From an uncultured Gemmatimonadales bacterium (GTDB lineage Bacteria > Gemmatimonadota > Gemmatimonadetes > Longimicrobiales > RSA9), in contig CAWAMW010000017.1 in assembly GCA_963783305.1 (NCBI GenBank), positions 192,001 through 256,000 of the forward strand: a stretch of DNA of 64,000 nucleotides, given 5' to 3'. How positions within the stretch are numbered: the stretch's first letter is position 1; every line of letters starts with the position of its first letter. Position numbers and translations under genes: made by a program. This document shows positions 10,376-62,966 of this stretch, piece after piece. Under the pieces are notes generated by a model, which had not been told where the DNA came from, did no database searches, and saw only the letters and a list, made by a program, of their open reading frames with translations.

Positions 10376-10448
10376 GGGATGGGGAAGGGGTGCGTGCCGG
10401 GGCTGATGGGAACAGCCAGAAGATAGAAATGGGCTCCCGCCCACGCAA

Positions 10449-11081
10449 TCACCGGAGCCGACCCGCCACCACCACGTCCGCCTCCGCGGCGAGGACCCGC
10501 AGACCGGCAGCCTCCAGGCGCTCACGGGCGTCCGCAGGCGCCGGCTCCACCAGCAGGCGGCCCGCCGGACCCAGCAGCCGAGCGCCCTCCTCCACCTGCT
10601 CGGCACGGGCCCCCGTGAGCGCGACTCCCCTCATGCTGCCGCTCCGGAGCGGCACCGACGCCCCCACCCTCAACACACTCACTCCCTCCTGAGCCGCGCC
10701 GTCGACCGCTCCACCGCCCGCAAGCACGATCACCGCCACGTCCGGGACCAGACTCCGCAGCAGCCCCGCGTGCGCCACGGCCGGCCCCGCCACCAGCACA
10801 GTACCCCCACCCCCCGTGAGTCCCAGCAGCGCCGCCAGCCGCACCGCCGCCTCCCGGTCCGGCGCCCCCACTCCCCCGTCTCCTCGCGTGCACGACGTCT
10901 CGCCCGGATCCACCCGCAGATCCGCCACCCCACCCTCGACGCCCCACCGCTCCCGGCAGTTCGCACACCCCAGAACCCCCGTCACCACCCCCCGCTGCCG
11001 CACTTCGCTCGGGAGCAGGATGAGACCGTACGAGGGGCCGCACCGGGGGCAGGTCAGGACGTCCGTCAGCGCTAGCTCCAT
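10449..11081 (-). CDS. Trm112-like zinc-binding domain fused to a degenerate methyltransferase-like region
   Basis: LTDVLTCPRCG ... GVLGCANCRERWGVEGGVADL resembles Trm112; the C-terminal assignment is weak. Confidence 0.65.
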   Translation of the reverse strand: MELALTDVLTCPRCGPSYGLILLPSEVRQRGVVTGVLGCANCRERWGVEGGVADLRVDPGETSCTRGDGGVGAPDREAAVRLAALLGLTGGGGTVLVAGPAVAHAGLLRSLVPDVAVIVLAGGGAVDGAAQEGVSVLRVGASVPLRSGSMRGVALTGARAEQVEEGARLLGPAGRLLVEPAPADARERLEAAGLRVLAAEADVVVAGRLR

Positions 11082-11169
11082 ACCCGCGATGGTACGACCC
11101 CCCGCCGCGCCGCGCCATCCCTCCCTCCCACCGCCCCCTCTCCGCCTCCACCACCCGCCCGTCGGGCAC

Positions 11170-11186
11170 TGTCTGGAGATCCGACA
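11170..11186. promoter_or_regulatory. Candidate enhancer (bEBP UAS) TGTCTGG-AGA-TCCGACA
   Basis: 17-bp imperfect palindrome ~165 bp upstream of a sigma54-type element; similar sites at 17058-17154. Confidence 0.4.
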
Positions 11187-11307
11187 GATCCACCAGCGCA
11201 CGCGTCGATCACCGCGTCGCCTCGGGCTGCACGCCTGGCGCACGGAAATCCCACACTCCGCAAAAAGTAGCGGAAATTTGTAGCAGATACGCTGGGGGCT
11301 ATACAGG

Positions 11308-11332
11308 TAAATGGTTGTGGTACAACAGGTTG
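11308..11332. promoter_or_regulatory. 25-bp palindrome, copy 1 (double inverted IHF-like core)
   Basis: TAAATGGTTG-TGGTA-CAACAGGTTG; CAA-N4-TTR on both strands. Confidence 0.6.
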
Positions 11333-11349
11333 AGAAACTTACCAAATAA

Positions 11350-11364
11350 CGGCCCCGCAGTTGC
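11350..11364 (+). promoter_or_regulatory. Sigma54-type promoter for the pilin operon
   Basis: CGGCCCCGCAGTTGC = GG-N10-GC with TTGC; 17 bp downstream of the palindrome and upstream of AGGAGG RBS. Confidence 0.55.
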
Positions 11365-11426
11365 CCTGATCCAGGCCGGCAGAATCAGAATGACACGGCG
11401 AATCGACACCCACAGGAGGGGCACAC

Positions 11427-11927
11427 ATGAAGAAGCTCGCGATCGTTACTCTGGTAGCAGCGGCGGCTCTGGCACTGCCGGAGCTGGCATTCGCGCAGGC
11501 CATCACCGCCAGCGCGACAGTGAACTCACTCTTCAGCGAGGGTCTGACCCAGGGCCTGACGTTCAATGCGGTGAACCCGGGAACGGCAGCGGCGGTGGAT
11601 ATCACGAGCGGCACGGGCGGCACGCCGGGGTATGTGGAGTTCAACTACAACGCGAACTACAAGGTGACGGCGACGACCCTCCCCGCCACCCTGACAAATG
11701 GCGGCACTTCGACCCTGTCGGTAGCTTGGATGTGTGGGACGTCGTCGGCCGTGGGCATAAACCCCGCGGCGTCGGCGGCGTGTGTACAGGGCAATGTGGT
11801 GGACAGCGACAACGCTGTGGCGGATTTCGGAACCGTGGTGGTGTGGCTCGGTGGCTCAATCGCCAACACGGACGTCCTGGCCGGAACGTACACCGGGAAC
11901 ATCACCTTCACGATCTCGGCGTTCTGA
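11427..11927 (+). CDS. Secreted pilin-like protein (DUF4402-type), probable major subunit
   Basis: Signal peptide (AFA-Q), N-terminal alternating strand AITASATV, Cys pair, C-terminal AGTYTGNITFTI; strong RBS. Confidence 0.7.
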   Translation: MKKLAIVTLVAAAALALPELAFAQAITASATVNSLFSEGLTQGLTFNAVNPGTAAAVDITSGTGGTPGYVEFNYNANYKVTATTLPATLTNGGTSTLSVAWMCGTSSAVGINPAASAACVQGNVVDSDNAVADFGTVVVWLGGSIANTDVLAGTYTGNITFTISAF

Positions 11928-11956
11928 TCGAGTCGTAGCAATGGGAGGGCACGGCG

Positions 11957-12469
11957 ATGCGGTTCCGCTTCGAGAATCCTGCGAGGATCATCGGCGGAGC
12001 CGTTTTCGTCTCGGCCCTGCTGGTGTCCCCTCCCGGGGCATACGCCCAGGGAGTTGGCGGGGGGGCGGGTGGAGGAGGAGAGGCCACCGTACAGCCGGTT
12101 CAGGGCCTCGAGTTCGGACTGCTCATTCCCGGCACTCCCATGCGTGTGCGGCCGGATGATGTGGGGCGGCGCGGCGAGCTGCAGGTCTCTGGAAGGGGGC
12201 AGTACCAGGTCCGGTTCGTTCTTCCCGCGTCTCTCGTGTCGGCTGAGGGGGCCAGTATCCCGGTCGAGTTCGGTCCCGGTGACGCGGCGGTGGTACGGGG
12301 CACTGCGGGGTCACCGCAGCTGTTCGATCCCAGTGTGGGAGCGGGCGTCTCCTTGACGGCAGGCATCAGCGAGGCGCAGTTGTTTCTCGGCGGAACGGCG
12401 CGACCGGCGGGGAATCAGGCGGCCGGGACGTACTCGGCGAGTGTCACGGTTCTGGTGGCCCGAAACTGA
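11957..12469 (+). CDS. Secreted pilin-like protein (DUF4402-type)
   Basis: Signal peptide (AYA-Q), VQGLEFG, LFLGGTARP, C-terminal AGTYSASVTVLV. Confidence 0.7.
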   Translation: MRFRFENPARIIGGAVFVSALLVSPPGAYAQGVGGGAGGGGEATVQPVQGLEFGLLIPGTPMRVRPDDVGRRGELQVSGRGQYQVRFVLPASLVSAEGASIPVEFGPGDAAVVRGTAGSPQLFDPSVGAGVSLTAGISEAQLFLGGTARPAGNQAAGTYSASVTVLVARN

Positions 12470-13386
12470 TGGTGACGAAGAAAGAGGGCGGGATGGTCAG
12501 GCTCATGGGGACAGTGAAGAGGCGGGGACCGCTGGCAGTTGCGGCGGTCTTCGCTGTGCTGTTGCTCCCCATCCTGGCGGATGCGGTGTCGGTTAGCCCG
12601 GTGGCGCTCTACATGGATCACCGAACCCGGTCGGAGACGCTCACGCTCTACAACTCGGGGACGACGACGGAGGAGATCGAGATCTCTTTCGCGTTTGGCT
12701 ATGCCCGCTCCGACTCGACAGGCGACGTGAGCGTGTTCTTCAGCGATGATCCCGCGCCGGCAGGCGAGCCGTCGGTGGTTCCCTACCTGAGGGCCTTCCC
12801 GCGCCAGCTGCGCCTCGCTCCCGGGGAGCGGCAGGTCGTCCGCATCCTGGTCACACCGCCGGCGGACCTGCCCGCCGGCGAGTACTGGGGGCGCGTGATG
12901 GTCACGTCGCGTGGCGGACAGCCGCCCATCGAGGAGTCCCGCGGCGACGTCCAGATGCAGCTCAGTCTGACCACCGTGATCGCGGTCGCCCTCAACTACC
13001 GGCATGGCGAAGTCGCCACCGGGCTGGCGGTCCGGTCGGTCGACGCGGTGCAGACGGAGGAGACGATCGAGTTCATCGCGGACGTGGAGCGGATCGGCAA
13101 CGCCGCCTTCCTCGGCCGCGTTGTCGCGGAGGTCGTGGACGCGGACGGCAATGTGGTCGCGGAGCACGTGGAGGACATGGTTGCCTACGTCCCCACACTG
13201 TGGCGCTTCTCCATACCGCGGCCCGCAGGGACTCTGGGAGCGGGAGCGGTGGTGAGGTACCGGTTCGAGGCGGAGCGGGCCGGGGTGCCCGCAGGGGCCA
13301 TCCTCCCGGCCGAGCCCGTCCGCGGCACCGCACCGATCCGGCCGGTCGCCAACGCGCCCACACCAACGTCCCACCCCGACCGATGA
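12469..13386 (+). CDS. Fimbrial chaperone-like protein (PapD-like Ig fold)
   Basis: Signal peptide, VSVSPVALY, LTLYNSG, PRQLRLAPGERQVVRI, LPAGEYWG, RIGNA; start uncertain. Confidence 0.75.
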   Translation: MVTKKEGGMVRLMGTVKRRGPLAVAAVFAVLLLPILADAVSVSPVALYMDHRTRSETLTLYNSGTTTEEIEISFAFGYARSDSTGDVSVFFSDDPAPAGEPSVVPYLRAFPRQLRLAPGERQVVRILVTPPADLPAGEYWGRVMVTSRGGQPPIEESRGDVQMQLSLTTVIAVALNYRHGEVATGLAVRSVDAVQTEETIEFIADVERIGNAAFLGRVVAEVVDADGNVVAEHVEDMVAYVPTLWRFSIPRPAGTLGAGAVVRYRFEAERAGVPAGAILPAEPVRGTAPIRPVANAPTPTSHPDR

Positions 13387-13934
13387 GCACCGGCGCGCGA
13401 CTGCTGGCGCTGTTCCTTGCGGTCGGCGTGCTCGGCGCCCCCACCGGAGTCCGTGCTCAGGGTGGGACGCTGGCCGCCAGCGTGAACATCCTGCTACCTC
13501 CGGCCAGCGGCAGCGGTCTGAGGGGGCTGGAATTCGGGACGGTCACGCCCGGGACCCCCGCGGAGGTCCTGCCCATCGCGCCGCTCAGCGGCTGGTTTCA
13601 GCTGACGAGTGTGAATCGGAAGACCAATGTTCGGCTCACGTTCACGCTGCCCTCCGTGCTGATCCGGGCTGGCGGCAGCCAGGCACTGCCGATCTTCTTC
13701 GATGGCCCCTACGTCCGCTCGTGCGGGAACGGCTGCCAGACCCACACGATCACTCCTACCCCGCTCAACGCTACGCAATCGACGGCCGAGGCCATCCACG
13801 TTCGCCCCGGCCCCCCCTGGGGTGCCAACCCCACCGTCATCGACGTGTACATAGGAGGCCGGGTGGAACCGACACCGGCGCAGCTGGCCGGCTCGTACCT
13901 GGGCACCATCCAGCTCACGTTCGCGGCTCTCTGA
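13383..13934 (+). CDS. Secreted pilin-like protein (DUF4402-type)
   Basis: Signal peptide (VRA-Q), TLAASVNIL, LRGLEFG, CGNGC, VYIGGRV, AGSYLGTIQLTF; ATGA overlap with the chaperone gene. Confidence 0.7.
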   Translation: MSTGARLLALFLAVGVLGAPTGVRAQGGTLAASVNILLPPASGSGLRGLEFGTVTPGTPAEVLPIAPLSGWFQLTSVNRKTNVRLTFTLPSVLIRAGGSQALPIFFDGPYVRSCGNGCQTHTITPTPLNATQSTAEAIHVRPGPPWGANPTVIDVYIGGRVEPTPAQLAGSYLGTIQLTFAAL

Positions 13935-13966
13935 GCCGCGCGGCGAGCCCCCTTCCGCGCTCCGCC

Positions 13967-16477
13967 ATGCGCCGCACGCTAGCGGTCGTGATCCTCGCGG
14001 CGGCGGCCGCCGCGGCTGTTCCGACGTGCGGTACCGCTCAACAGCTGCCGGCGCACGTGGAGGAGGGCCTCTTCGAGGTGCTCGTCCCGGCCCTCGGAGC
14101 GATCACGGTGCCCGTCCTGGTGGATACCGCCCAGGCGGTCCTGCTCCCGCTCGAGCCCGTTCTCAGCCACCTGGGCTTTCTCGTCGAGACCGGCCCCCTG
14201 CAAGCGGCCTGGCGACCGGCCGCGGCGGCGCCCGAAAGCCGGCTCCAGCTAACCCCGCCGCATTACCGCGACGTCGACGGAGACACCCTCTCCCTCCCGC
14301 CAAGCTCCGTCCTCCGGTACGGCGGCGAGGTCTTCGTCAGCACGGCCGCCCTGGGCGTATTGCTGGGCGCCGAGATCGAGGTGGACTGGGGTGCACTTCG
14401 GGTGGTGCTGACCCGCAGGGACCCGCCCTTCCCCGCCCACGCCCGCGCGCTGGTCGAGGCCCGCCGCAGTCGGCTGGCGAGGCCGGAGCGCGGTGCGGGC
14501 GCCCCCTCGGTGCCGTACACCCCGCGCACGGGGGGCGGAATCCTGGACTGGAGCCTGGGCACTTCTCCACTGGAGGATCGGACCCTTGCACGCGTCGCAC
14601 TCGGTGCCGCGATTCTCGGCGGCGACCTGGTGGTCGGCGGATCCGTGGTCACGGGCGACTCCCCCGACCGCGCGGGCGAGGTATCCTACCGCCGCATCTT
14701 CCCCGAGCGGCGCTGGATCAACCAACTGCTGCTGGGGCAGGTCGTCACCCAGGACCTGGCACCCCGATCGATCATGGGCGCGGTCGTGTCGAACATCCCC
14801 CAGCAGCGCGACGCCCATTTCAGCGACGTTGCCATCGCTCCGGACATCCCGGAGGGATGGGAGTTCGAGGTGTACCAGGGCGGTCGCCTCGTCGGGTTCT
14901 CCAGCGCCGGCGCAGATGAGGCCGTGCTCGTGCCCGTCCGGTACGGTCAGACACCCGTCGAGGTGCGAATGGTGGGACCGTCCGGGGAGGAAGTGGTGTC
15001 GCAATACCGTTACCTGGTTCCGATCACACACCTCCCGCCCGGGCGGACGGAGTACTCCGCGGGCGTGGGCGTCTGCCCCGCCGACCGCTGCGACGGGATC
15101 GGCTACGGCGAGCTTCGACACGGCTGGGGGCAACGGCTCACTCTCGGCGGTGGTGTCCAGGCGCTCTCCGAAGACGGGGAGCTGAGGGTCAGGCCGTCCG
15201 CCCTGGCGAGCTTCGCGCCCGATCGCCACTGGGCTCTCGAAATGGAGGCGCGCGCCGAGGAGTTCGTCCGCGCCTCCGTGGATCGCATGGGAGACGACGG
15301 GCGGCACGTGGGTGTCGATGCATCTCTCCACCAGTCGATTTTCGGTCAGCCCTCTTTCCTGCCGGGATCGGGTGCGCGCTGGCAGCTGCAGGGCCAGGCG
15401 GGGGCCCACCCCGTTCACGTGACCGGCCGGATCGATGGGGTGGCGGGCGACGGAATCGAGCGGGTTCGCCTCGCCGCTGGCCGCTCGCTCCCGCGGGGGT
15501 TCGGTGAACTGGCCGTGGAGGGCGGCCCTTTCGGCGCTGACCGCGTCACCGGCCGCGCCACCACGATCCTCCCCGAGCGCCTTTGGGCGTTCGGACGACC
15601 CATCGCCGTTTCCGGCAGCATGAGCGCCACCGCCGACGGGCTGCGGCTCCTGGAGTTGAGCAGCTCGATGCGGCCTCGGCGCGAAAGCTACCTGAGCGCC
15701 GCCCTCCAGTGGAACGGGGAGCGCGACGAGCTCCACCTAAAGGTCACCTTCCGACAGGTGCTCCAGGCCGCGCGCCTCGACGCCGCCCTCTCCCAGCGCT
15801 CCGCCAACTCCAGCCTCACCATGTCCGCCAACGGCTCCATCGCGATCGGCGGGGTACGCGGCTCCCATTTCTCCAGTCGAGACCTCCAGCGACGAGCCGG
15901 CGTCGTCGGCCGCGTCTACTACGACCGGAACGGAAACCGCGCGTTCGACGATGGCGAACAGCCCGCCCCCGACGTCTCGGTACTCGTGGGCGGCATGCGT
16001 ACCAGGACGGACGACGACGGGCTCTACCGCGCGTGGAACGTTACCCCCTACGAGGTCACTGCCGTCTCCGTCGACACCCTCTCGGGGATCGACCCGCGCT
16101 ACACCGTCCTCACCGGCGGCACACTCCTGCGCCCCGTTCCACACCTCCCAAACCGCGTGGACTTCCCGCTCACCGAGACGCGCGAGCTCCTCGGCCGCGT
16201 CCAGAGGGAGAACGGAAAAGGCGTCGGTGGCGTCGAGATCGAGATCCTGAGCGCCCATGGTGACCCCGTCCAGACCCTCCGGACCTTCACCGACGGGACC
16301 TTCTACGTGAGCCGCCTCCTGCCCGGCGATTGGCGCGTGCGGATCGCCAGCCGATCACTCCGCGCACTCGGCGTGGCTTCCGCACCGCCCGAGGTCACCG
16401 TCCACATCCGCCTCCAGGAGTCCGAGCCGCTGCTGGAAATCCCACCCTTCGTACTGCGCGAGGACGCGGAGCCCTGA
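13967..16477 (+). CDS. Usher-like outer membrane protein with C-terminal carboxypeptidase-regulatory/SdrD-like Ig domains
   Basis: 836 aa, signal peptide, amphipathic beta strands, plug-like PEGWEFEVYQGG...VRMVGPSGE, GRVYYDRNGN, TFTDGTFYV. Confidence 0.65.
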   Translation: MRRTLAVVILAAAAAAAVPTCGTAQQLPAHVEEGLFEVLVPALGAITVPVLVDTAQAVLLPLEPVLSHLGFLVETGPLQAAWRPAAAAPESRLQLTPPHYRDVDGDTLSLPPSSVLRYGGEVFVSTAALGVLLGAEIEVDWGALRVVLTRRDPPFPAHARALVEARRSRLARPERGAGAPSVPYTPRTGGGILDWSLGTSPLEDRTLARVALGAAILGGDLVVGGSVVTGDSPDRAGEVSYRRIFPERRWINQLLLGQVVTQDLAPRSIMGAVVSNIPQQRDAHFSDVAIAPDIPEGWEFEVYQGGRLVGFSSAGADEAVLVPVRYGQTPVEVRMVGPSGEEVVSQYRYLVPITHLPPGRTEYSAGVGVCPADRCDGIGYGELRHGWGQRLTLGGGVQALSEDGELRVRPSALASFAPDRHWALEMEARAEEFVRASVDRMGDDGRHVGVDASLHQSIFGQPSFLPGSGARWQLQGQAGAHPVHVTGRIDGVAGDGIERVRLAAGRSLPRGFGELAVEGGPFGADRVTGRATTILPERLWAFGRPIAVSGSMSATADGLRLLELSSSMRPRRESYLSAALQWNGERDELHLKVTFRQVLQAARLDAALSQRSANSSLTMSANGSIAIGGVRGSHFSSRDLQRRAGVVGRVYYDRNGNRAFDDGEQPAPDVSVLVGGMRTRTDDDGLYRAWNVTPYEVTAVSVDTLSGIDPRYTVLTGGTLLRPVPHLPNRVDFPLTETRELLGRVQRENGKGVGGVEIEILSAHGDPVQTLRTFTDGTFYVSRLLPGDWRVRIASRSLRALGVASAPPEVTVHIRLQESEPLLEIPPFVLREDAEP

Positions 16478-16569
16478 CCCCGGTCCGCCAACCGAGGGAA
16501 CCACTACGATCGAATGGCCGTTCCAAGGCGGCCATCACCGATCGCTCCAGCACGGATTTGCGCCGCGAA

Positions 16570-16926
16570 TCAAGGGGCGGCCAGCACCACCCGCACGGGA
16601 ACCGCGCTCGTACCCGAGTCCCGCGCCAGAGTCGCCCAGTCGGACGCCGACAGCTCCAGCCGACCCGCGGGTCCAGGGTCACGAGTCACTGCGTAGCCCT
16701 CAGCACCCACCCGCACGCTCACCGTCCACCGGTGCCTCCCCTCCACAACCACCGCCGGCTCACCTTCCGCGACACCGGAGGCCTCGATCCGCACCGATGG
16801 CTGCACGCTCGGCGCAAGCACCGTCACACTGGCCTGAATACTGGCTGATTGCGCCTCCGACGCGGTCGGACACACCGCCAGCAGAGCCAGCGCCGCCACC
16901 ACAACTGCCTGACCCGTGAATCTCAT
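16570..16926 (-). CDS. Short secreted beta-rich protein with pilin-like N-terminal strand
   Basis: Signal peptide (SEA-Q) followed by SASIQASVTVL; GAGGAG RBS; 118 aa. Confidence 0.65.
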   Translation of the reverse strand: MRFTGQAVVVAALALLAVCPTASEAQSASIQASVTVLAPSVQPSVRIEASGVAEGEPAVVVEGRHRWTVSVRVGAEGYAVTRDPGPAGRLELSASDWATLARDSGTSAVPVRVVLAAP

Positions 16927-16996: not shown

Positions 16997-17021
16997 GAAA
17001 CCGTTGGTGGACAACACTTTA
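16997..17021. promoter_or_regulatory. 25-bp palindrome, copy 2
   Basis: GAAACCGTTG-GTGGA-CAACACTTTA. Confidence 0.55.
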
Positions 17022-17201: not shown

Positions 17202-17588
17202 TCAGAAGGCGAGGGTCTTCTCGGAGTACAGCGCGAACTGGGTGGGCGTCTCCCACACCTTCACGTAGAGGAGCGCGGCGGCCATGTCGGTCGGGAGTCG
17301 CTGCTTCAGCTCATCGAAGAAGAAGCGGGCCTGGTTCTCGGCAGAGGGCTCGACCTCGTCGAAAGGCGGGAGCTCGTTGATGTTCTCATGATCGAGCCAG
17401 TCGGCAAGCTCGCGCGTGTGCCTCTTCACGTCGACGAAGTCGAAGGCCAGACCGGCCGCGTTCAGCTCGTCGGACATTAGTGCGACTTCCACCACATAGC
17501 GGTGGCCGTGAAGCCTCTCGCACTTCCCCTTGTAGTTGCGGAGGAAATGGGCCGAGTCGTAATGGGCCTGCACACTGACGACGTACAT
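17202..17588 (-). CDS. queD: 6-carboxy-5,6,7,8-tetrahydropterin synthase (QueD/PTPS-I type)
   Basis: SAHFL, C-X3-HGH (CERLHGH), LDHENIN, PSAEN, VWETP. Confidence 0.8.
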   Translation of the reverse strand: MYVVSVQAHYDSAHFLRNYKGKCERLHGHRYVVEVALMSDELNAAGLAFDFVDVKRHTRELADWLDHENINELPPFDEVEPSAENQARFFFDELKQRLPTDMAAALLYVKVWETPTQFALYSEKTLAF

Positions 17589-17590: not shown

Positions 17591-18361
17591 TCAACTCCGT
17601 TGGACTGCGACCGTAGGGATGTGGACTCCCGGCGGCCGCGATAGGACGAACAGAACGGCGTCGGCGATGGCCTGGGCCGTGAGCATTTCACTGCGCGCGG
17701 GAAGATCCGGCCGCCCGTCCGGATCGATGGGATCCCAGATTGGGGTGTCGGTGGCGGCGGGCTCCACGAGGGTCGCGCGCACGCCGGTGCCACGGAGCTC
17801 CTGCACCAGGACCTCGTGCATTCCCCGCACGCCGAACTTGGACGCCGAGTACGCGGCGTTGCCGGGGAAGGCTGTCCTCCCGGCCACGGAACCGATGGTG
17901 ACGATGTGCCCGGCCCCGGCGGCGAGCATGGACGGGAGTAGGGCGCGGGTAACGAGGAACGGCGCGGTCAGGTTGCCGTCTATCATGCGCTGGAACATCC
18001 GGGGCTCGGTCTCCGCCAGGGGCGCGAGGTCGAACGCGCCCACCGCGTGGACAACGGCAAACAGTGGCCCCTCGTCCAGCACGGCCTCGGCCAGCGCCCC
18101 GACGGCGTCGGCGTCCGACGCATCGGCGGGAAGGGCGCGCGCCCCGGTGTCGGCCGCCAGGTGGTGCAGCCGCTCCGCTCCGCGCGCGGTCGCCAGCACG
18201 CGCGCGCCCCGGCCGGTCAGTCTACGGACGACTGCCGCGCCGATCCCTCCGGTCGCACCCGTCACCAGAATGAGTCGGCCCGTCAGGTCGACCGCGTCGA
18301 TGCTCCCGCCGACGTCAGAGGGTCCAGCCCGGCCCGGATCCACCTCAGTCGATGATGCCAT
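17591..18361 (-). CDS. SDR family oxidoreductase (possible sepiapterin-reductase role)
   Basis: [15 protein letters not shown]; lies within the pterin operon. Confidence 0.85.
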
Positions 18362-18935
18362 TCGACATCGTCAGTCGGAGGAACTCCTCGCGGGTCCTGA
18401 TGTCCTCGAGGAACACACCCTTCATTGCACTGGTGATGGTCTTCGAGTTCTGCTTCTCCACGCCACGCATCATCATGCACAGGTGATAGGCCTCCACGAC
18501 CACCCCCACGCCTTCCGGCTTCAGCACCTCCTGGATGGCGTCGGCCACCTGCTCCGTGAGCCGCTCCTGCACCTGGAGCCGACGCGCGAACACGTCCACG
18601 ATCCGCGGGACCTTGCTGAGTCCCAGGATCCGACCGTTCGGGATGTACGCCACATGCACCTTCCCGAAGAACGGCAGCATGTGATGCTCGCACAACGAGT
18701 ACATCTCGATGTCCTTCACCACCACCATGTTGTGATGGTCCTCGTTGAAGATGGCCGTGCCGATCACATCCTCCACCGCCTGACCGTATCCCCGCGTCAG
18801 CCACTTCAGGCTGTCCGCCACCCGGTCCGGCGTCCGCAGCAATCCCTCCCGCTCCGGATCCTCACCCAGTCGCGACAGCAGCTCCCTGACCAGATCCCGT
18901 GTCTCCACCGTCTCCAGCTCCGACCCGCTCCCCAT
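18345..18935 (-). CDS. folE: GTP cyclohydrolase I
   Basis: [45 protein letters not shown]. Confidence 0.97.
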
Positions 18936-18937
18936 CC

Positions 18938-19354
18938 TCAACCCCCCGCGTATTCCACGTAGTTGCGCGGCGTCTCCCACAGGACCAGCCGCACCAGCTC
19001 CACCTCACCCGGGAGCTCCGTCACCAGTCGGCCCCAGATCGCCACCACCAGGTTCTCCGTAGTGGGATTCTGACCGCCGAGCCACTCCACGTCCAGATTC
19101 AGATTCCGGTGATCGACGTCCCCCAGCACCCGCTCCTCCACGAGCGCCTTCAGATCCTTGAGGTCCAGAACGAACCCCGTCTCCCCGTCTACCTCGCCCT
19201 CCACCGTCACATCCAGCTCGTAGTTGTGGCCGTGCCAGTTCGGGTTCGAGCAGTCCCCGAAGACCGCCGCGTTCCGCTCAGCACTCCACTCGGCGAGACC
19301 CAGTCGATGCGCCGCCGCGAAGTGTACCCGCCGCGTTACCCGGACCCTCGGCAT
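18938..19354 (-). CDS. 6-pyruvoyl-tetrahydropterin synthase, PTPS-II type
   Basis: FAAAHRL, C-X5-HGH ([11 protein letters not shown]), [20 protein letters not shown]. Confidence 0.85.
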
Positions 19355-19766: not shown

Positions 19767-19791
19767 AAACTCGTTGCAGGACAACCACTTA
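19767..19791. promoter_or_regulatory. 25-bp palindrome, copy 3
   Basis: AAACTCGTTG-CAGGA-CAACCACTTA. Confidence 0.6.
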
Positions 19792-19937: not shown

Positions 19938-20103
19938 CCGGGGGGAAATGGGATACCGATGGCCGCCGGCACGGCGCTGGGCGGATTCACCCCGGTATCC
20001 GGGGGGAAACGGGATACCGATCGCCGCCGGCACGGCGCTGGGCGGATTCACCCCGGTATCCGAAGGAAAACGGGATGCCGGCGCCGCCGGCACGGCGCCG
20101 GGC
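19938..20103. repeat. Tandem 61-bp repeat, ~2.7 copies
   Basis: Units start at 19938, 19999 and 20060 (CCGGGGGGAAAYGGGATACCGAT...GGCACGGCGCTGGGCGGATTCACCCCGGTAT). Confidence 0.9.
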
Positions 20104-20180: not shown

Positions 20181-21077
20181 CTATTTCCGCCGGTAGGAGC
20201 GGAGCAGGGCGAGGTTGGCGCGGTCGGCTGCAACGGCATCGTCGCCCTTGGGAGTCTCGATGGCCTTCGGCACATGGGCGAGACGGGGCTCGTTCATGAT
20301 GGCGCGGAAGATCTCGTCGCCAATGGAGCCCTCGCCGATGGCCGCGTGACGGTCGCGGTGGCTGCCGAAGGGAGTCAGGGAGTCGTTCAGGTGGAGGAAC
20401 CGGAGGTGCTGGAGTCCGACGGTGTGATCGAATCGATCGAGCACGGCTTCCAGGTCGCGGAGGTCGTGGCCGGCGGCCCACACGTGGCAGCTGTCGAGGC
20501 AGACGCCGACGCGGTCCGGGTGGCGTGCGCCCACGAGCGTGACGAGGGTCGCGAGCTCCTCGAACGTGGAGCCCAGGGCGGTACCACTGCCGGCGGTGCC
20601 TTCGAGGAGGACGCGAACTCGGCCCGGAACCGCGTCGAGTGCGCGGCTGATGGATTCGGCGTTCTGTCGCAGGCCCCGGTCGGGATCGCCGTCGGTCGCG
20701 TTCCCCGGATGAGAGACGAGGAAATCGAGGCCGAGGGCCTCGCAGCGACGGACTTCGGTGGTAAAGGAGTCCAGCGAGCGCTCCAGGAGCGACGGATCGG
20801 GCGTGGCCAGGTTGATCAGGTAGGAGTCGTGGGCGGCGCTGGTGCATATGCCGTGCTCCTCCATGGCCGAGCGGAAGGCGGCGACCTCCTCCTCCTCCAC
20901 GTCCCGCTCGCGCCAGCGGTTGGGCTGCTTGGTGAAGATCTGGAGCACCGCGGCGCCGAGCTCGGCGGCCCGACCGGGGGCGTTGGGCGTCCCTCCAGCG
21001 GTGGAGACGTGCGCCCCCAGCTCGTCAACGATCCGCTCCGCCATCTGCTTCGTTCCGTGATCCGTGTCGGTCCGCAT
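20181..21077 (-). CDS. nfo: Endonuclease IV (AP endonuclease)
   Basis: LGAHVSTAGG, HDSYLINLA, HPG, LLEGTAG, DSCH, HLNDS, DRHAAIGEG, ETP. Confidence 0.95.
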   Translation of the reverse strand: MRTDTDHGTKQMAERIVDELGAHVSTAGGTPNAPGRAAELGAAVLQIFTKQPNRWRERDVEEEEVAAFRSAMEEHGICTSAAHDSYLINLATPDPSLLERSLDSFTTEVRRCEALGLDFLVSHPGNATDGDPDRGLRQNAESISRALDAVPGRVRVLLEGTAGSGTALGSTFEELATLVTLVGARHPDRVGVCLDSCHVWAAGHDLRDLEAVLDRFDHTVGLQHLRFLHLNDSLTPFGSHRDRHAAIGEGSIGDEIFRAIMNEPRLAHVPKAIETPKGDDAVAADRANLALLRSYRRK

Positions 21078-58079: not shown

Positions 58080-58094
58080 GCAACGGTCATGCCA
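58080..58094 (-). promoter_or_regulatory. Sigma54-type promoter
   Basis: Minus strand TGGCATGACCGTTGC, near consensus, 40 bp upstream of the AI-2E start. Confidence 0.55.
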
Positions 58095-58250: not shown

Positions 58251-58736
58251 ATGAGCCGCTCTCTGAACAAGGTAATGTTGATCGGGAACGTGGGGGCCGA
58301 GCCGGAGGTCCGCACCACTCCCTCGGGCACCCGGATCGCCAAGATCTCCGTGGCCACCAATCGTGAATGGTCCGACCGGAGCGGTCAGAAGCAGGAGAAG
58401 ACCGAGTGGCACCGGATCACGTTCTGGGACAAGATGGCGGAGATCGTCGAGCGCTACGTCCACAAGGGCGACCGCATCTACGTAGAGGGGCGCATCGAGT
58501 ACAGCCAGACCCAGGATGACCAGGGGAACGTGAAGTACTGGACCGACATCGTGGCGCGCGAGATGGTCATGCTCGGTCAGGGCGGCCCCGGAGGGGGGGG
58601 CGGGGGCGGCGAGTACGACTCCGGCGGCGGGTTCAATCAGGACCGCGGCGGCTCCGGCGGCTCCGGCGGCTTCGACCAGTCGCCCAAGGGCGGCGGCGGA
58701 ACGCCCTTCGAGGAAGATGACGACCTGCCGTTCTGA
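58251..58736 (+). CDS. ssb: Single-stranded DNA-binding protein
   Basis: LNKVMLIGN, TEWHR, Gly-rich linker, C-terminal DDDLPF. Confidence 0.97.
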   Translation: MSRSLNKVMLIGNVGAEPEVRTTPSGTRIAKISVATNREWSDRSGQKQEKTEWHRITFWDKMAEIVERYVHKGDRIYVEGRIEYSQTQDDQGNVKYWTDIVAREMVMLGQGGPGGGGGGGEYDSGGGFNQDRGGSGGSGGFDQSPKGGGGTPFEEDDDLPF

Positions 58737-58742
58737 AGCGAC

Positions 58743-58778
58743 AGAGGGCCCCGGCCGCACCCGCAGCCGGGGCCCTCT
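58743..58778. terminator. Hairpin after ssb (terminator between convergent genes)
   Basis: AGAGGGCCCCGGC...GCCGGGGCCCTCT 13-bp stem. Confidence 0.6.
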
Positions 58779-58837
58779 CATATCTAGCCTCTCACGGACC
58801 GCGCCCGCCCGACGGCGGAAGCACGATCCGGTTCTGG

Positions 58838-59101
58838 CTACGGCCGGGAAAGCCGCTTCTTCGCCGTCTCGCGATCGACTGGCAGCGCCTCCGGTCCCTC
58901 TACGATCTCCAGTTCCACGGGCGCGAAGGCGCGGATCTCCGGATCCCCGTCCAGCGTCACACTCACCTTCTGCGGCGTGTATACGGAGTGTTCCACCACC
59001 GCACCCGTCCGGCCGATCAGTCCAGGATCGGACGGCAGGGGTCCACGCTGGATGCGAACGCGCGTGCCGTGGGGCAGAACGGACAGCTCGGTTATGGCCA
59101 T
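58838..59101 (-). CDS. Small hypothetical protein (possibly SH3/KOW-like beta barrel)
   Basis: [16 protein letters not shown]...GRTGAVV pattern. Confidence 0.65.
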   Translation of the reverse strand: MAITELSVLPHGTRVRIQRGPLPSDPGLIGRTGAVVEHSVYTPQKVSVTLDGDPEIRAFAPVELEIVEGPEALPVDRETAKKRLSRP

Positions 59102-59249
59102 GACCTCTCCTCGTTCGGCTCAATGGTGGCCGGAAGATGGCGGCTCCGGACCCGCCGGGCAATGCACCAGAGCCTCGACCGCCGGCTTGCCACACACGGG
59201 CGTCTGCCTATATTTCCGCCCCCCGAACGATTCATCGATACGAGGCGAC

Positions 59250-59489
59250 ATGAGGGAAACGCGAGACATCTCCAGGACCATGGGCGCGGTCCCCGGGTTC
59301 GTAATCGGCGTGATCTGGCTGGCCCTGGCCGCCAACGCGATCTGGGGCTCCATGCAGGGCTACGCCAACGGACGCGATGACTGGGGCCTGGGCTGGGGAT
59401 TGGTGGGGTTCTTCCTGCTGGCCGCCGGCGCATCCGCTCTCATCGGGACCTGGTGGCACACCTTCCGGGTCAGACGGGACCGCCACTAG
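59250..59489 (+). CDS. Small 2-TM membrane protein
   Basis: Two hydrophobic helices; GAGG RBS. Confidence 0.65.
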   Translation: MRETRDISRTMGAVPGFVIGVIWLALAANAIWGSMQGYANGRDDWGLGWGLVGFFLLAAGASALIGTWWHTFRVRRDRH

Positions 59490-59496
59490 CACGACT

Positions 59497-59594
59497 CGGG
59501 CTTCGATCCGCCGGGCTTCGATCCGCCGGGCTTCGATCCGCCGGGCTTCGATCCGCCGGGCTTCGATCCGCCGGGCTTCGATCCGCCGGGCTTC
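59497..59594. repeat. Perfect 15-bp tandem repeat, 6.5 copies
   Basis: CGGGCTTCGATCCGC x6 followed by CGGGCTTC. Confidence 0.95.
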
Positions 59595-59607
59595 CAACCT
59601 TCCCGCC

Positions 59608-59994
59608 TCAGGAACCGCCGGCGCTGTTCGCGTCCGCGGGCGGCGTGGATTCCGACCCCTCCACCGCTTCTTTCCAGAACCCCAGAAGCTCCACGTCAAA
59701 TCGCTCCGGTGATTCCTCATACGCCGCGGACCACTGCTCGTATGTCGGGAGGGGCGTCCGCTCCAGCAGCACATCCGTCACGCGCTGGACCAGTGAGCGA
59801 TAGCTACGGTGCGTGGGAAGAGGGAGTCTCGATTCCCCGGGAGCGGCCTCCGGACGCCGGGCGGCGGAAGGGTCGTCCGGACGCGCCAGCTCGTAGATCT
59901 GCTCCGGGCTCAGATCCAGGAACCGCTCGGCCAGCCGCGCCGAACACCAATCCAGGTACTTCGCCCGTCGCGTTCGGTCCCCGGACTGATCCAT
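59608..59994 (-). CDS. Hypothetical protein
   Basis: 128 aa; KYLDWCSARLAERFL...LPTYEQW...LLGFWK. Confidence 0.7.
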   Translation of the reverse strand: MDQSGDRTRRAKYLDWCSARLAERFLDLSPEQIYELARPDDPSAARRPEAAPGESRLPLPTHRSYRSLVQRVTDVLLERTPLPTYEQWSAAYEESPERFDVELLGFWKEAVEGSESTPPADANSAGGS

Positions 59995-60065
59995 TGGCTC
60001 CGCTGAGACGGTGAATTCGATCCTTCCCTCTCGACCATCAGCCTAGAGGTCGGACCGGACTTTCG

Positions 60066-60260
60066 TCAATAGCGGGCGTCCCCCGCGACATCCAGCCCCC
60101 CGTCCCGCGCCACCAGATACTCGAAGATCATGCGCCGCGTGATCCCGTACGCCACGATCCGGGCCAATGCCTCCGGATCGCTCCCCTGCACCCGCTCAAC
60201 CTCGTTCTCGAGCGGTTCAGGGGGGCGGACGTGCAACTCGGCGGCACTGGTTTCCGACAT
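60066..60260 (-). CDS. Small hypothetical protein
   Basis: 64 aa from ATG 60260; plausible composition. Confidence 0.5.
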   Translation of the reverse strand: MSETSAAELHVRPPEPLENEVERVQGSDPEALARIVAYGITRRMIFEYLVARDGGLDVAGDARY

Positions 60261-60270
60261 TGGATGGCTC

Positions 60271-60313
60271 TCTGGATAAATTGTGGAAAAACTGTGTACA
60301 ACTTCGTGGAAAC
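60271..60313. promoter_or_regulatory. Four phased DnaA-box-like 9-mers (candidate oriC element)
   Basis: TCTGGATAA, TGTGGAAAA, TGTGTACAA and CGTGGAAAC at 60271, 60282, 60293 and 60305, compared with TGTGGATAA. Confidence 0.6.
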
Positions 60314-60447
60314 GTCGGATCATCAGCGATCCAGCACGTTCCGTTGGGCGGCCAGCCATGTTTCCCGCAGGGGACGAAGAAGATAGGACGCGGAAACGGG
60401 CGCGTCAACCCTCACGATGCCTCCCGGCGATCGCCCCCGCAAACACC

Positions 60448-60472
60448 TAAATGGTTGCAGCACAACAACTTA
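60448..60472. promoter_or_regulatory. 25-bp palindrome, copy 4
   Basis: TAAATGGTTG-CAGCA-CAACAACTTA. Confidence 0.6.
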
Positions 60473-60663
60473 GCGAAATGGCCAATTTCACGTTTTTTGG
60501 CAAACATCCGTGGTCTCGAGGACGGCCGGTGAGGGTATCGAAAGTCACGGAACCGTTGCAATTCGGACACATCCGGCGTGTGGCCGGAGCCGGGAAGCCT
60601 CATTTTCGCCGTCCAGAAACACTTGTTTTTTGGCGTTGATAAGTAGCCCGGTTTTCCCCATCC

Positions 60664-60693
60664 TTGACACTCCCGGCGGCCGCGGGCTACGCT
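60664..60693 (+). promoter_or_regulatory. Sigma70-type promoter
   Basis: TTGACA-N18-TACGCT. Confidence 0.5.
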
Positions 60694-60699
60694 CTTTGT

Positions 60700-61428
60700 G
60701 TGCTGAAATCTACGAAGCGGGAGAGCGGTGACGGAGCACCCCCGGGGACGCGCAACGCGGCCCGGGAGGGGGCGCGCCGGCGCTCGTTCACATTTGTCGA
60801 GCGTGAAGGATATCGGTGGTCGGTGTTCCTGGCGACGTACGCCGGCGATGACGGCCGCTGGCGTGGGTACTTTACCTTCCGGACGGCGGCGCCGGGCCTG
60901 GAGGGGCAGGAGATCCGAACGGCGGACCTGTTCGTGGAGCCGAGTGAAGCGGAGGTGGATGCGCGCGCGCGGGGTCTGGGGCGGCCGCTGCTGGGGTCAC
61001 TCCTGGAGTCGGCGCTGCACACGCACGACCGGAAGCGGGGTCCGTCGCCGGACGTGAGCCGGTGGTTCCGGGAAGTGCTGGCGAACCGATCGGAGGAGCT
61101 GGCGGTGCCTCTGGGTGAGGCGGACGACATCTCGCTTACGCACCTGCGGTCGCTCTACGACTCCTATCGAATCGATCAGGTCTCGCACCTGATCGCGCTG
61201 GTGGAGCCGGCGCAGTTCCGCCTTGTCGTGGACCGGCTGCTGGAAGGGCGCGAGATCGACTTCCGTGCGAGTGACCGGCTGCAGCTGGCGATGATCGTGG
61301 TACAGGAGCTGGAGCGGCACCTGCCGCTGCCGCCGTTCGAGGTCTGGGTGGAAGACTACATGGACCGCCGGGACGTCTACCATCGGTACACCCACGACCT
61401 GCACCGGGAAGGTACGCTTCCGGGCTGA
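60700..61428 (+). CDS. Hypothetical protein
   Basis: 242 aa from GTG 60700; ends with LPLPPFEVWVEDY, similar to the LPTYEQW motif of 59608-59994. Confidence 0.7.
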   Translation: MLKSTKRESGDGAPPGTRNAAREGARRRSFTFVEREGYRWSVFLATYAGDDGRWRGYFTFRTAAPGLEGQEIRTADLFVEPSEAEVDARARGLGRPLLGSLLESALHTHDRKRGPSPDVSRWFREVLANRSEELAVPLGEADDISLTHLRSLYDSYRIDQVSHLIALVEPAQFRLVVDRLLEGREIDFRASDRLQLAMIVVQELERHLPLPPFEVWVEDYMDRRDVYHRYTHDLHREGTLPG

Positions 61429-61493
61429 GAGTGGGTGCACGCGTCTGAGGGCGATGCAGGGGCAGGTGAGAGCGAAGGGCGTGGGTGTGCGGG

Positions 61494-61536
61494 CGCGACG
61501 AGCCCCGCCGGGCGGATGCCGGCGGGGCTCGTCGCG
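61494..61536. terminator. 18-bp perfect hairpin between convergent genes
   Basis: CGCGACGAGCCCCGCCGG-GCGGATG-CCGGCGGGGCTCGTCGCG. Confidence 0.7.
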
Positions 61537-61574
61537 TGGCGCCTCCCCCCCGTCCGGCGGGGGAGGGGGGAGAC

Positions 61575-62966
61575 TCAGGCCACGAGGGACCAGACCAGCT
61601 GGATGAGGAGGGCGGTGATGGCGACGGGGGCGACATATCGGATCAGGAAAACCCATGCCCCACCGAGGGGGAACTTGCCGTCGTTGGCCCGGACCTCTTC
61701 TCCCGCGGACTGAACGCCCCACACCCAGGCGATGAAGATGCTTATGAGGAGGGCGCCGATGACCAGGGAGTACTGACCGAAGATGGTGAAGAGGAGGGAG
61801 AGGAAGTCGAGCCCCACCCCGGGAACGTTGGACAGCCAACCCACGGCGCCGTTGGCCAGGGCGCTGGGGATGCCCACAACGAATGCCACGCCGCCGATCG
61901 TGAATGCGGCCTTCCTGCGGCTGAAGTTGCGCTCGTCGATGAGCCAGGCCGAGGCTACCTCGAGGAGGGATACCGAGGAAGTCAGGGCGGCGATGGCCAG
62001 GAGCGAGAAGAAGAGGGTGCCGAAGATGATGCCGCCGTAGGGCGCCGGCGGGATGGAGCCGAGGAGTGAGGTAAGGACGACGAAGACCATGCCGGGCCCG
62101 CCCGTCCCGGGCTCGAGCCCGGCGGAGAAGAGCGTGGGGAAAATGATGAGGCCGGCCATGATGGCGATGGCGGTGTCGAAACCGGTCACCCAGGCGGCGG
62201 AGCTGACCAGGTCGTCTCTCTTGGTGATATAGGAGCCGTAGGTGATCATGGCGCCCATGCCGAGGCTGAGGCTGAAGAAGGCCTGGCCTACGGCGGCGAG
62301 GATCACGGTGCCGGTGATCTTGCTGAAATCGGGCTTGAGGTAGAAGTCGAGGCCCGCCTCGGCGCCGGGGAGGGTGACGGCCCGGGCTACGAGGAGGAGC
62401 AGGATCAGGAGGAGCGCGGGCATGAGGATCTTGGTCCAGCGCTCGATGCCGTGGCGGACGCCGCCGATCACCACCAGGATGGTGATGATCATGAAGACGA
62501 AGTGCCAGCCGATGGAGGCCACACCGCTGCCGGCTACGCCATCGAAGATGGCCGCAGTGTCGGCGCTGGCGACGAAGGTCCCGGTGATCGCCTTGAGAAT
62601 GTAGGCGAGGGTCCAGCCGGCGATGACGGAGTAGAAGCTGAGGATCACCACGCCGGTGAGGACGCCCAGCCCTCCCACGACCACCCAGGCGGAATCGGGG
62701 GCCAGGGCCTTGAAGGCCCCGACGGGGTTGCGCTGGGTCCTGCGCCCGATGATGAGCTCGGCCAGCATGACTGGCGCGCCGATGAGCGCTACCGCCAGGA
62801 GATAGACCACCAGGAAGGCGGCCCCGCCGTTGGTCCCCGCCACCGTGGGGAAGCCCCATATGTTGCCGAGCCCGATGGCGCTGCCCGCGGCCGCGAAGAT
62901 GAAGGCGGCCTTCGAGCCCCAGGTGTCGCGGGTGGGCGCGGCGCCCGGGTCAGTGCGGGTGTCCAT
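61575..62966 (-). CDS. Sodium-dependent transporter, NSS/SNF family
   Basis: RDTWGS, GSAIGLGNIW.FP, QAFFSLSLG, AALTSSVSLLE. Confidence 0.95.
   Translation of the reverse strand: MDTRTDPGAAPTRDTWGSKAAFIFAAAGSAIGLGNIWGFPTVAGTNGGAAFLVVYLLAVALIGAPVMLAELIIGRRTQRNPVGAFKALAPDSAWVVVGGLGVLTGVVILSFYSVIAGWTLAYILKAITGTFVASADTAAIFDGVAGSGVASIGWHFVFMIITILVVIGGVRHGIERWTKILMPALLLILLLLVARAVTLPGAEAGLDFYLKPDFSKITGTVILAAVGQAFFSLSLGMGAMITYGSYITKRDDLVSSAAWVTGFDTAIAIMAGLIIFPTLFSAGLEPGTGGPGMVFVVLTSLLGSIPPAPYGGIIFGTLFFSLLAIAALTSSVSLLEVASAWLIDERNFSRRKAAFTIGGVAFVVGIPSALANGAVGWLSNVPGVGLDFLSLLFTIFGQYSLVIGALLISIFIAWVWGVQSAGEEVRANDGKFPLGGAWVFLIRYVAPVAITALLIQLVWSLVA

Follow-up and report, generated by a model that had tools for sequence, protein, structure and literature searches.

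Bacterial GC skew is usually taken as a chromosome-scale replication signal or as coding-strand bias. The window studied here, meaning the whole stretch of 64,000 nucleotides that was analyzed, raises the question of why the top strand should switch locally from C-rich to G-rich at each of four copies of a palindrome, AA-N4-TTG-N5-CAA-N4-TT. The switches were first described in a sequence-only reading that relied on eight base counts made by hand, and all eight proved exact on recount. For the present analysis, the flip was scored at fourfold-degenerate sites with correction for coding-strand and codon-family bias, using genes called with a home-made hexamer model. A scan of the whole window at a threshold of z=4 gave only four interior peaks, at 11011 (z=8.2), 16916 (7.9), 19748 (7.5) and 60864 (9.8), and these coincide with the four palindromes on which the flips had been said to be centered (Table 1); the same scan gave an extra peak at the window edge, at base 8. 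Along the plus-strand gene at 13967-16477, the top-strand skew in successive fifths toward copy 2 is -0.15, -0.15, -0.01, -0.51 and -0.45, and to the right of copy 4 the skew returns to -0.03 by 63142. The genes on the two sides of copy 4 had both been assigned to the minus strand, which our gene calls correct for the one just to the right (60823-61428), placed on the plus strand. No Rfam families were found in the window, and a rho gene is present within it.

Table 1. Palindrome copies in the window and the skewed arms on either side of them (skews are fourfold values on the top strand)
Feature	Position	Strand	Details
Palindrome copy 1, probable IHF-type site	11309..11331		PWM 29.3 bits; flip 0.62, z 6.8
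Copy 1 left arm, C-rich	10449..11081	-	Trm112-like gene, -0.54
Copy 1 right arm, G-rich	11427..13386	+	Three genes, fading +0.33 (11427-11927), +0.16, +0.08
Secreted-protein operon with DUF4402 genes, putatively a pilus operon			Begins in copy 1 right arm
Palindrome copy 2	16998..17020		PWM 27.7 bits; flip 0.65, z 7.6
Copy 2 left arm, C-rich	15472..16926	both	End of + gene 13967-16477; - gene 16570-16926 (-0.64)
Copy 2 right arm, G-rich	17202..17588	-	QueD gene, +0.28; curtailed by copy 3 left arm
Palindrome copy 3	19768..19790		PWM 28.1 bits; flip 0.64, z 7.5
Copy 3 left arm, C-rich	18345..19354	-	folE, -0.53; 6-PTS/QueD-family gene (18938-19354), -0.54
Copy 3 right arm, G-rich	20181..21077	-	Endonuclease IV family gene, +0.40
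Palindrome copy 4	60449..60471		PWM 30.3 bits; flip 0.66, z 8.6
Copy 4 left arm, C-rich	58251..60260	both	Five genes, -0.24 to -0.38 (59608-59994: -0.38)
Copy 4 right arm, G-rich	60823..62966		+ gene 60823-61428, +0.64; - sodium-dependent transporter gene 61575-62966, +0.48

Genome-wide, spacers of at least 150 bp that contain the motif were compared with those that do not. The fourfold flip was 0.499 (n=16) versus 0.103 (n=505) in tandem spacers (p=7.8e-6) and 0.486 (n=13) versus 0.165 (n=357) in divergent ones (p=5.5e-4). Codon positions 1 and 2 were alike in the two classes in the same test (p=0.38 and 0.72), which rules out amino-acid composition as the cause. The flip drops almost linearly with distance, starting at 0.30 for 250-500 bp and reaching about 0 at 2-2.5 kb, and is thus gone by roughly 2 kb, within the 1-3 kb decay that the sequence-only reading had predicted. 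Its claim that the polarity is independent of gene strand also holds at fourfold sites, both in genes read away from the site and in genes read toward it, whose coding strand is C-rich; the sign of top-strand skew is common to plus and minus genes (r=0.71 over 177 windows of 20 kb). Intrinsic terminators were without effect on the flip in tandem spacers.

The change in base composition is itself asymmetric. On the outward strand, fourfold C is 0.285 and 0.324 near the sites versus 0.427 and 0.455 far away, G and T are raised (T is 0.074 and 0.066 versus 0.053), and A is flat; on the inward strand C and A are raised and T is flat. The shift is found in 11 of 12 codon contexts in genes read toward the site and in 12 of 12 in genes read away, and T climbs along with G, which lends little support to the earlier suggestion of selection for oriented G-tracts. 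A sequence-context mutator was rejected when a context analysis gave no clear context, and gene-level codon preference as the sole cause is ruled out by within-gene gradients that reach non-adjacent genes (0.082 both ways versus 0.009 and 0.021).

The flip climbs with motif score (rho 0.62, n=33), and all 10 sites of at least 27 bits flip (0.58-0.91), six of them outside the window. After control for AT content, sigma-70 score, spacer length and orientation, sites of at least 26 bits retain an effect of +0.56 (t=7.7), so that the association did not dissolve into a general feature of intergenic DNA, as the sequence-only reading had allowed that it might. That reading proposed a strand-asymmetric process centered on these sites, and this part stands; the palindrome as a specific loader does not, being neither necessary nor sufficient. 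It is not necessary because only 16 of the 165 strong flips in the genome carry it, and repressor, LexA-like, CIRCE and dif-like sites flip too. It is not sufficient because the same motif outside the family mostly lacks a flip (8 of 21 sites flipped, versus 59 of 65 within the family). The motif as specific cause is ruled out on these counts.

To judge from its sequence, the palindrome probably represents a symmetric site of the IHF type. The E. coli IHF consensus appears as WATCARnnnnTTR in PMC3897727, and as TAAnnnnTTGATW in PMC10380432. The core of this consensus, CAA-N4-TT, is matched in both arms of the palindrome (PWM consensus AA..TTG and CAA..TT), and the spacer between the arms is strictly 5 (12 matches, versus 0 at spacers 2-4 and 6-9); conservation is weak at the positions 5' of CAA, where WAT would stand, and the site as a whole has symmetry. 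Two IHF/HU family members score above the Pfam cut-off, one nearest HU (G000:C13:92161) and the other nearest IHF-beta (G000:C6:188971), both below the NCBIfam cut-offs; the candidate binder is the one IHF-beta-like protein of the genome, acting as a homodimer. One motif copy (C2:890957) lies in the dnaA-dnaN spacer, with genes identified from their translations, and has an AT-rich tract on one side and DnaA boxes on the other; this layout fits the place of an IHF site in an origin, between the unwinding element and the DnaA boxes. The core, the origin copy and the IHF-beta-like gene in the host genome thus resemble the E. coli system, from which the palindrome differs in its full symmetry, its lack of WAT and its predicted binder, with one IHF-like subunit and not an alpha/beta pair.

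Other protein-bound sites behave in the same way. Repressor-gene spacers, defined by Pfam, have a flip of 0.385 (n=39) versus 0.040 (n=1662), and 0.41 versus 0.115 when set against matched spacers (n=35). LexA-like boxes flip by 0.32 when intergenic (n=13) versus -0.04 when genic (n=20), the CIRCE site has a flip of 0.69, and a dif-like site, which is no promoter, gives a peak of z=5.8; LexA-like, CIRCE, PadR, TetR and MerR sites all stand out in the skew readout. Two rRNA operons have flips spanning +/-50 kb, and parS has little flip (z=1.4-1.6). No large chromosome-scale switch was found at the dnaA/parS region of this genome; chromosome-scale structure was sampled in three genomes (G000, G027 and G019). 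In this family, then, synonymous sites up to about 2 kb from tight sequence-specific binding sites have C down and G and T up on the outward strand, on both sides and whatever the direction of the gene.

The best reading of the distribution is that the flip is restricted to one lineage, a family of GC-rich bacteria. Flips were replicated in independent genomes and were absent from GC-matched outgroups run through the same code; two genomes within the family, G015 and G022, are negative for the trait. E. coli operator and IHF sites had a mean flip of -0.007 +/- 0.017 (n=16), with none at the IHF-associated acs/nrf and pspG spacers. Genomes without regional skew were also without flips (rho 0.66 over 22 genomes, which as kin are not independent). 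None of 12 repair and replication families tracked the trait: RNase H and UDG (27/27 each), mutS and xseA (28/28 each), priA (24/24), recG (28/28, with mfd-like second hits), recJ, PD-(D/E)XK and mutL (5/5 each), DnaE-type polymerases (23/24) and Y-family polymerases (20/24) did not, and ung was over the cut-off in 13 of 31, with both trait states represented.

The explanation that we favor, tentatively and with somewhat less than even confidence, is a lineage-restricted mutational footprint at tight protein-DNA roadblocks, probably produced by phased single-strand exposure in replication, with the palindrome as one of several roadblocks. We infer that mutation, not selection, is the source. 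In the proposed process, a bound protein would pause the fork and set the start or stop of lagging-strand synthesis; exposure of the lagging template would then be longest just beyond the block and least just ahead of it, across one Okazaki-fragment length. The long-term mutation bias would be a loss of C, as by deamination of single-stranded DNA. Fork direction may be averaged out beyond co-oriented regions, by inversions or by forks arriving from either side, and regional skew would therefore cancel as a symmetric local flip accumulates. The arms fit pre = -0.22 + 1.10|b| and post = 0.26 + 0.34|b|, where b is regional skew, which is near the -s+b and s+b of this mixed-direction model with s of about 0.25. 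Single-direction Okazaki phasing, with an amplitude proportional to regional skew, was unsupported by the data, and the mixed-direction form stands.

Several observations tell against phased exposure at roadblocks. E. coli possesses the same machines yet shows no flip at its 16 sites, and no family among the 12 tracks the trait. The model leaves the rRNA-operon flips unexplained, and the effect at parS is small. Intergenic DNA near motifs has only a weak skew (0.035-0.04), and in the broader AT-rich class the flip shrinks with rising regional skew (slope -0.69 +/- 0.28, n=239). Furthermore, most of the G gain requires transversions, for which deamination accounts only indirectly.

A real possibility, albeit a doubtful one, is that roadblocks delimit tracts of repair or recombination. 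Mismatch-repair excision, or break repair accompanied by biased gene conversion, would begin or end at tightly bound proteins and would favor one strand for resynthesis or correction within 1-2 kb. C:C mismatches are poorly repaired relative to G:G, and this would yield a G/C-specific bias. Such tracts are consistent with the presence of both arms at low regional skew, with a change that is mainly from C to G with A flat, and with the larger flips at larger obstacles such as the rRNA operons; mutS, mutL, recJ, xseA, addAB-like genes, recG and priA are all encoded. However, these genes also occur in flip-negative relatives, and the outward rise in T is unpredicted by pure G/C conversion.

Transcription seems an unlikely source. 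Divergent transcription or R-loops at strong repressed promoters could leave the outward non-template strand single-stranded to left and right of the site, as happens near transcription starts in eukaryotes. The polarity agrees with the coding-strand bias seen across the genome at fourfold sites (+0.073), consensus sigma-70 sites flip by 0.23 (n=48), the top 3% by an expression proxy flip by 0.16, and rRNA operons flip widely; the correlation with a codon proxy for expression is rho 0.13. Yet the upstream arm of tandem spacers, which is antisense, equals or exceeds the downstream one (0.24 versus 0.15, n=17), tRNA loci flip by only 0.087 (n=27), sigma-70 score contributes little to a regression that already includes motif and repressor (t=2.0), and the dif-like site and, slightly, convergent spacers flip as well.

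Synonymous selection acting through Rho, with inward transcripts kept C-rich to let Rho end them at a repressed promoter and outward ones G-rich to evade it, is quite improbable. The window's rho gene, the slight flip of convergent spacers and the 3' C-enrichment of weak spacers (0.064 +/- 0.015) agree with it, and a bias in base composition driven by Rho has been described for other bacteria (PMC13323073). But Rho prefers pyrimidine-rich RNA, and the inward strand gains A along with C, not the U expected of a terminated strand; the inward arm moreover lies within translated genes as far as 2 kb away, the context analysis showed no clear YC preference, and the +/-50 kb zones are unaccounted for.

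A dedicated loader that binds the palindrome and dispatches a helicase or translocase in both directions, the strongest form of the original proposal, is largely refuted and very unlikely: the dose response to motif score is strong and the motif is the largest single regression effect, but 149 of the 165 strong flips lack it, unrelated operators flip, and outside the family it mostly does not. An artefact of gene calls, codon usage or assembly is scarcely credible, for all that the gene model is home-made and weak spacers show within-gene gradients of 0.05-0.06, since the flip is visible in raw base counts, recurs in independent genomes, is absent from the outgroups under the same code, and has few opposite-sign counterparts (6 versus 65 peaks at z of at least 8).

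The local imprint of protein-DNA complexes on skew is dose-dependent and confined to one clade, with GC-matched neighbors and E. coli lacking it, and it makes operator occupancy readable from sequence alone. It offers a natural experiment in how forks and repair handle protein roadblocks and in where bacterial Okazaki fragments start, and it is a warning that attempts to call origins from skew can go wrong in this group. A broader interpretation, which we regard as rather doubtful, is that chromosome copying or re-copying in the family is dispersed and unusual, with strand-asymmetric synthesis radiating from protein-bound obstacles, over about 2 kb where these are operators or IHF-type sites and over about 50 kb where they are rRNA operons, and with a dnaA-oriC region that lacks chromosome-scale skew. 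If this were true, synonymous composition would be a fossil occupancy map of the place and tightness of protein binding in uncultured bacteria. A literature search, with most subscription journals beyond its scope, turned up no earlier description of local flips of this kind in bacteria.

Among the closest known parallels is the replichore skew switch at oriC, which shares the C-rich to G-rich polarity, the same sign in plus and minus genes and the effect at synonymous sites; the local flips differ in reaching only about 2 kb, at more than 100 sites, with no single persistent switch at oriC. In yeast, Okazaki junctions and raised substitution rates are found at transcription-factor sites. There too, bound proteins determine where lagging-strand events fall and leave their trace in the pattern of mutation, but that trace is a narrow increase in rate, whereas the bacterial flip is a two-sided compositional change over 2 kb. 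Asymmetry at eukaryotic transcription starts, as described in PMC3269016 and PMC2927911, is likewise a local, kilobase-scale skew at regulatory DNA; the bacterial flip appears to track tight binding more than transcription, does not follow the coding strand (which is C-rich in genes read toward the site) and occurs in one family only. Finally, the purine bias driven by Rho is also a strand-specific base bias at synonymous sites, but it follows the coding strand over whole genes (PMC13323073), whereas the local flip reverses within operons and ignores gene direction.

The base counts behind the sequence-only reading, which proposed local changes from a C-rich to a G-rich top strand (flips) centred on each palindrome, are exact (8/8). 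The palindrome reads AA-N4-TTG-N5-CAA-N4-TT. The genome that holds the window (G000) was searched throughout its 4.35 Mb and 17 contigs; it contains 12 strict copies with the spacer of 5 and none with spacers of 2-4 or 6-9. A weight matrix seeded on these 12 copies finds 44 sites of at least 15 bits; after local shuffling of the genome it finds 4 at 14 bits and a single one at 16 bits. Sites of at least 17 bits fall in 36 spacers; removal of three paralogous copies left the 33 used for the arm-skew, AT-patch/intergenic and dose-response analyses. Genes were called with a purpose-built hexamer model (3777 genes, 88% coding).

The sequence-only reading expected skew at fourfold-degenerate sites to vary with distance from the motif, and the flip, taken there as skew right of a spacer minus skew left of it, is indeed larger at motif spacers in both gene contexts. 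Among G000 spacers of at least 150 bp, it is 0.499 with the motif (n=16) versus 0.103 without (n=505) in tandem spacers (p=7.8e-6), and 0.486 (n=13) versus 0.165 (n=357) in divergent ones (p=5.5e-4); codon positions 1+2 show no difference between motif and other spacers. The claimed independence from gene strand also holds, in that skew on the outward strand (running 5'-3' away from the site) is 0.22-0.32 in the first kilobase where genes read away and 0.18-0.34 where they read toward the site. It is back at baseline by 2-3 kb, in line with the predicted decay over 1-3 kb, and the flip profile per 250 bp is 0.16, 0.30, 0.27, 0.24, 0.20, 0.17, 0.08, 0.06, 0.03 and 0.01 (n=46 sites).

When the score is corrected for codon family, the interior of the window shows four peaks exceeding z=4, each at one palindrome. 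Higher-scoring motifs have larger flips (rho 0.62, n=33), and all ten sites of at least 27 bits, six of them outside the window, have flips of 0.58-0.91. Skew gradients are found even within single long genes (0.108 +/- 0.024, n=76; 0.075 +/- 0.035, n=43) and in non-adjacent genes (0.082 in both directions); at weak spacers the within-gene gradients are 0.048 and 0.064, and near nil in non-adjacent genes. On the outward strand of strong sites, C is 0.285/0.324 versus 0.427/0.455 far away, G is 0.589/0.557 versus 0.471/0.437, T is 0.074/0.066 versus 0.053, and A is unchanged. Two-fold sites show a modest T gain on the same strand. No sequence context dominates the change at codon sites. Intergenic DNA near motifs responds weakly (0.035-0.04), close to the proportion at the 50-kb scale (slope 0.26).

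The palindrome is probably a symmetric IHF-type site for a homodimer. The IHF consensus core described in PMC3897727 and PMC10380432, CAA-N4-TT, occurs in both arms, and the WAT bases are absent. G000 codes for one HU-like and one IHF-beta-like protein, and therefore a homodimer on a symmetric site would fit. The dnaA-dnaN spacer contains one copy, and others are upstream of apparent pilins, ECF sigma factors and flagellar genes; a sigma-54 pattern is found in 3/36 motif spacers versus 9/631 controls.

Features of the window and of G000 (C, contig of G000)
Feature	Location	Remark
Palindrome copies 1-4	window 11309, 16998, 19768, 60449	
Operon flanked by copies 1 and 2	window 11427-16926	five + genes for secreted-looking proteins, plus a convergent small gene; two DUF4402 proteins and one with carboxypeptidase-regulatory/SdrD-B domains; appears to resemble a chaperone-usher pilus cluster; no pilus family matches
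Two 61-bp direct repeats (97% identical), partial third	window 19938-20100	directly right of copy 3; hairpins inside
15-bp unit, about seven tandem copies	window 59497-59601	between convergent genes
DnaA-box-like word cluster	window 60270-60310	about 170 bp left of copy 4; strict-pattern match at 60282; possibly a DnaA-titration or regulatory site
Perfect hairpin (18-bp arms), then second G/C hairpin	window 61494-61572	between convergent genes; terminator-like
dnaA-dnaN spacer	C2:890810-891095	AT-rich tract, palindrome copy, DnaA boxes; palindrome between the other two
parS, two perfect sites	C2:897239 and 897840	
Palindrome 1-2 kb upstream of dnaE	C2:12232	also in relatives G003, G004, G005, G006
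tRNA array	C2:112817-115211	19 genes
rRNA-operon skew switches	C7:~520000 and C15:~196000	
dif-like site	C6:48100-48140	region without terminus-type skew switch
Sharp G-to-C switch with gene-strand change	near C12:115-122 kb	not at dif-like site
Candidate LexA box upstream of lexA	C12:79436	direct repeat CGAAC-N6-CGAA; also upstream of recA and other apparent repair genes
Polysaccharide-type loci	C1, C3, C2:937939; C4, C5, C9, C10	near-duplicate, 87-99% identical; suggests that near-duplicate small contigs are strain variants in the assembly

Flips are not confined to the palindrome. A motif-blind scan of G000 detected 165 C-to-G flips versus 41 of opposite sign at z>=6, and 65 versus 6 at z>=8; the palindrome is present at only 16 of the 165 and is not necessary. 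Flip size tracks the AT-richest 30 bp of a spacer, and does so in convergent, divergent and tandem contexts. Of the 45 highest-ranking spacers, many lie next to genes that, by their translations, look like repressors or repressed genes. A set was assembled from all Pfam TetR, MarR-like, MerR, PadR and GntR hits, with an upstream gap of at least 40 bp in 39/41; it includes one ATPase beside the dif-like site, and two members without a gene call were placed at fixed positions. These spacers have a flip of 0.385 +/- 0.056 (n=39; nine had suggested the idea, and the remaining 30 average about 0.25) versus 0.040 in controls (n=1662, p=4.5e-11). PadR spacers are positive in 12/12 cases and GntR spacers weak (0.07, n=5). 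Matching on context, AT and sigma-70 score leaves 0.41 versus 0.115 (n=35, p=4e-5), and joint regression gives separate terms of +0.56 for a strong motif (t 7.7), +0.14 for a weak one (t 3.0) and +0.32 for a repressor (t 8.7), with t 7.1 for the AT patch and 2.0 for sigma-70. For the candidate LexA-box repeat, the flip is 0.32 over 13 copies between genes (10 positive, recA among them) and -0.04 over 20 copies within genes. The flip is 0.69 at CIRCE, 0.33 +/- 0.21 at Fur-like sites (n=5), 0.10 at sigma-54 sites (n=12), 0.23 at sigma-70 consensus sites (n=48) and 0.087 at tRNA loci (n=27); the dif-like site peaks at z 5.8, and the two parS sites reach only 1.4-1.6.

A stricter palindrome pattern occurs in 26/41 genomes of the order (a tally that takes in G020, G021 and G024, flagged unpublished), with reversed controls near zero; it is spread over many phyla, named Gemmatimonadota accounting for 18 among the 80 loci listed. 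G000 itself probably belongs to this phylum, where its protein matches are densest. At strict sites, where kin are not independent, the flip is positive in 27/28 cases in the genus (mean 0.43), in 32/37 in the rest of the family (0.27) and in 8/21 outside it (-0.04). The palindrome is therefore not sufficient. Two genomes inside the family, G015 and G022, appear flip-negative (0.00 and -0.03). A closed sister-family genome has no flips (slope on AT -0.05 +/- 0.14, 191 spacers), and another relative, G019, has them (0.43 +/- 0.13). Repressor spacers of relatives flip in 9/10 family cases and are mildly positive in the two outgroup cases (0.19 and 0.11). Motif loci in Bacteroidota, Treponema, Fibrobacter, Proteobacteria and mixed sets have mean flips of -0.015 to 0.06, and in E. 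coli the mean over 16 spacers with an operator or IHF site, taken from 150 kb, is -0.007 +/- 0.017. None of the tested repair and replication families accounts for the lineage restriction. UDG subclasses, in a tally that again takes in G020, G021 and G024, seem family-dependent: a 520-nt class is found mostly in sister families, and the window's family, G015 and G022 included, has a weaker one of 550-600 nt.

On a larger scale, G000 has no chromosome-scale skew switch at dnaA/parS, and its regional skew is a mosaic common to + and - genes (r=0.71). Origin-like switches of about +/-50 kb, as read from the present assembly, are centred on two rRNA operons in genes of both strands; a flank swap between these operons would keep them, because both upstream flanks are C-rich in the rRNA sense. 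Genomes with more regional skew tend to have larger local flips (rho 0.66 over 22 genomes, short loci partly sharing signal). The closed 4.5-Mb relative G027, sampled at 20 evenly spaced 20-kb loci (L224-L243), has almost no replichore skew.

Flips are no larger where regional skew is higher, and phasing under a single fixed fork direction is therefore excluded. The arm fits, pre = -0.22 + 1.10|b| and post = 0.26 + 0.34|b| (n=58; arms either side of the site, b regional skew), agree with phasing under mixed fork direction, the reading we tentatively favour. The flip would then be twice the per-arm amplitude whatever the background skew, and its near-linear 2-kb decay would suit an Okazaki-sized tract; Okazaki tracts are comparable in size to this decay. 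Repair or conversion tracts with roadblocks as boundaries are a rather unlikely source. Divergent transcription is improbable. What flipping sites share would appear to be a tight, static protein-DNA complex, not transcription rate. Selection through Rho is less probable again. A loader specific to the motif, the strongest form of the sequence-only reading, is very improbable; its site-centred, strand-asymmetric signal stands, but not the palindrome as a necessary (16/165 flips) or sufficient (8/21 outside the family) cause. An artefact is hardly credible. The signal is real, replicated, clade-restricted and wider than that reading saw.

PMC11237797, in the part available, describes, in Gemmatimonadota, 600 kb of co-oriented sequence close to the terminus that contain rRNA operons, with little gene-strand bias elsewhere, and that part makes no mention of local flips. 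Nor did the available portions of the literature, including PMC3269016, PMC2927911, PMC13323073, PMC3897727, PMC10380432 and PMC11237797, yield an account of skew that extends for kilobases on both sides of protein-binding sites in bacteria. The signal is a new form of strand-asymmetric substitution, for which a mechanism is proposed.
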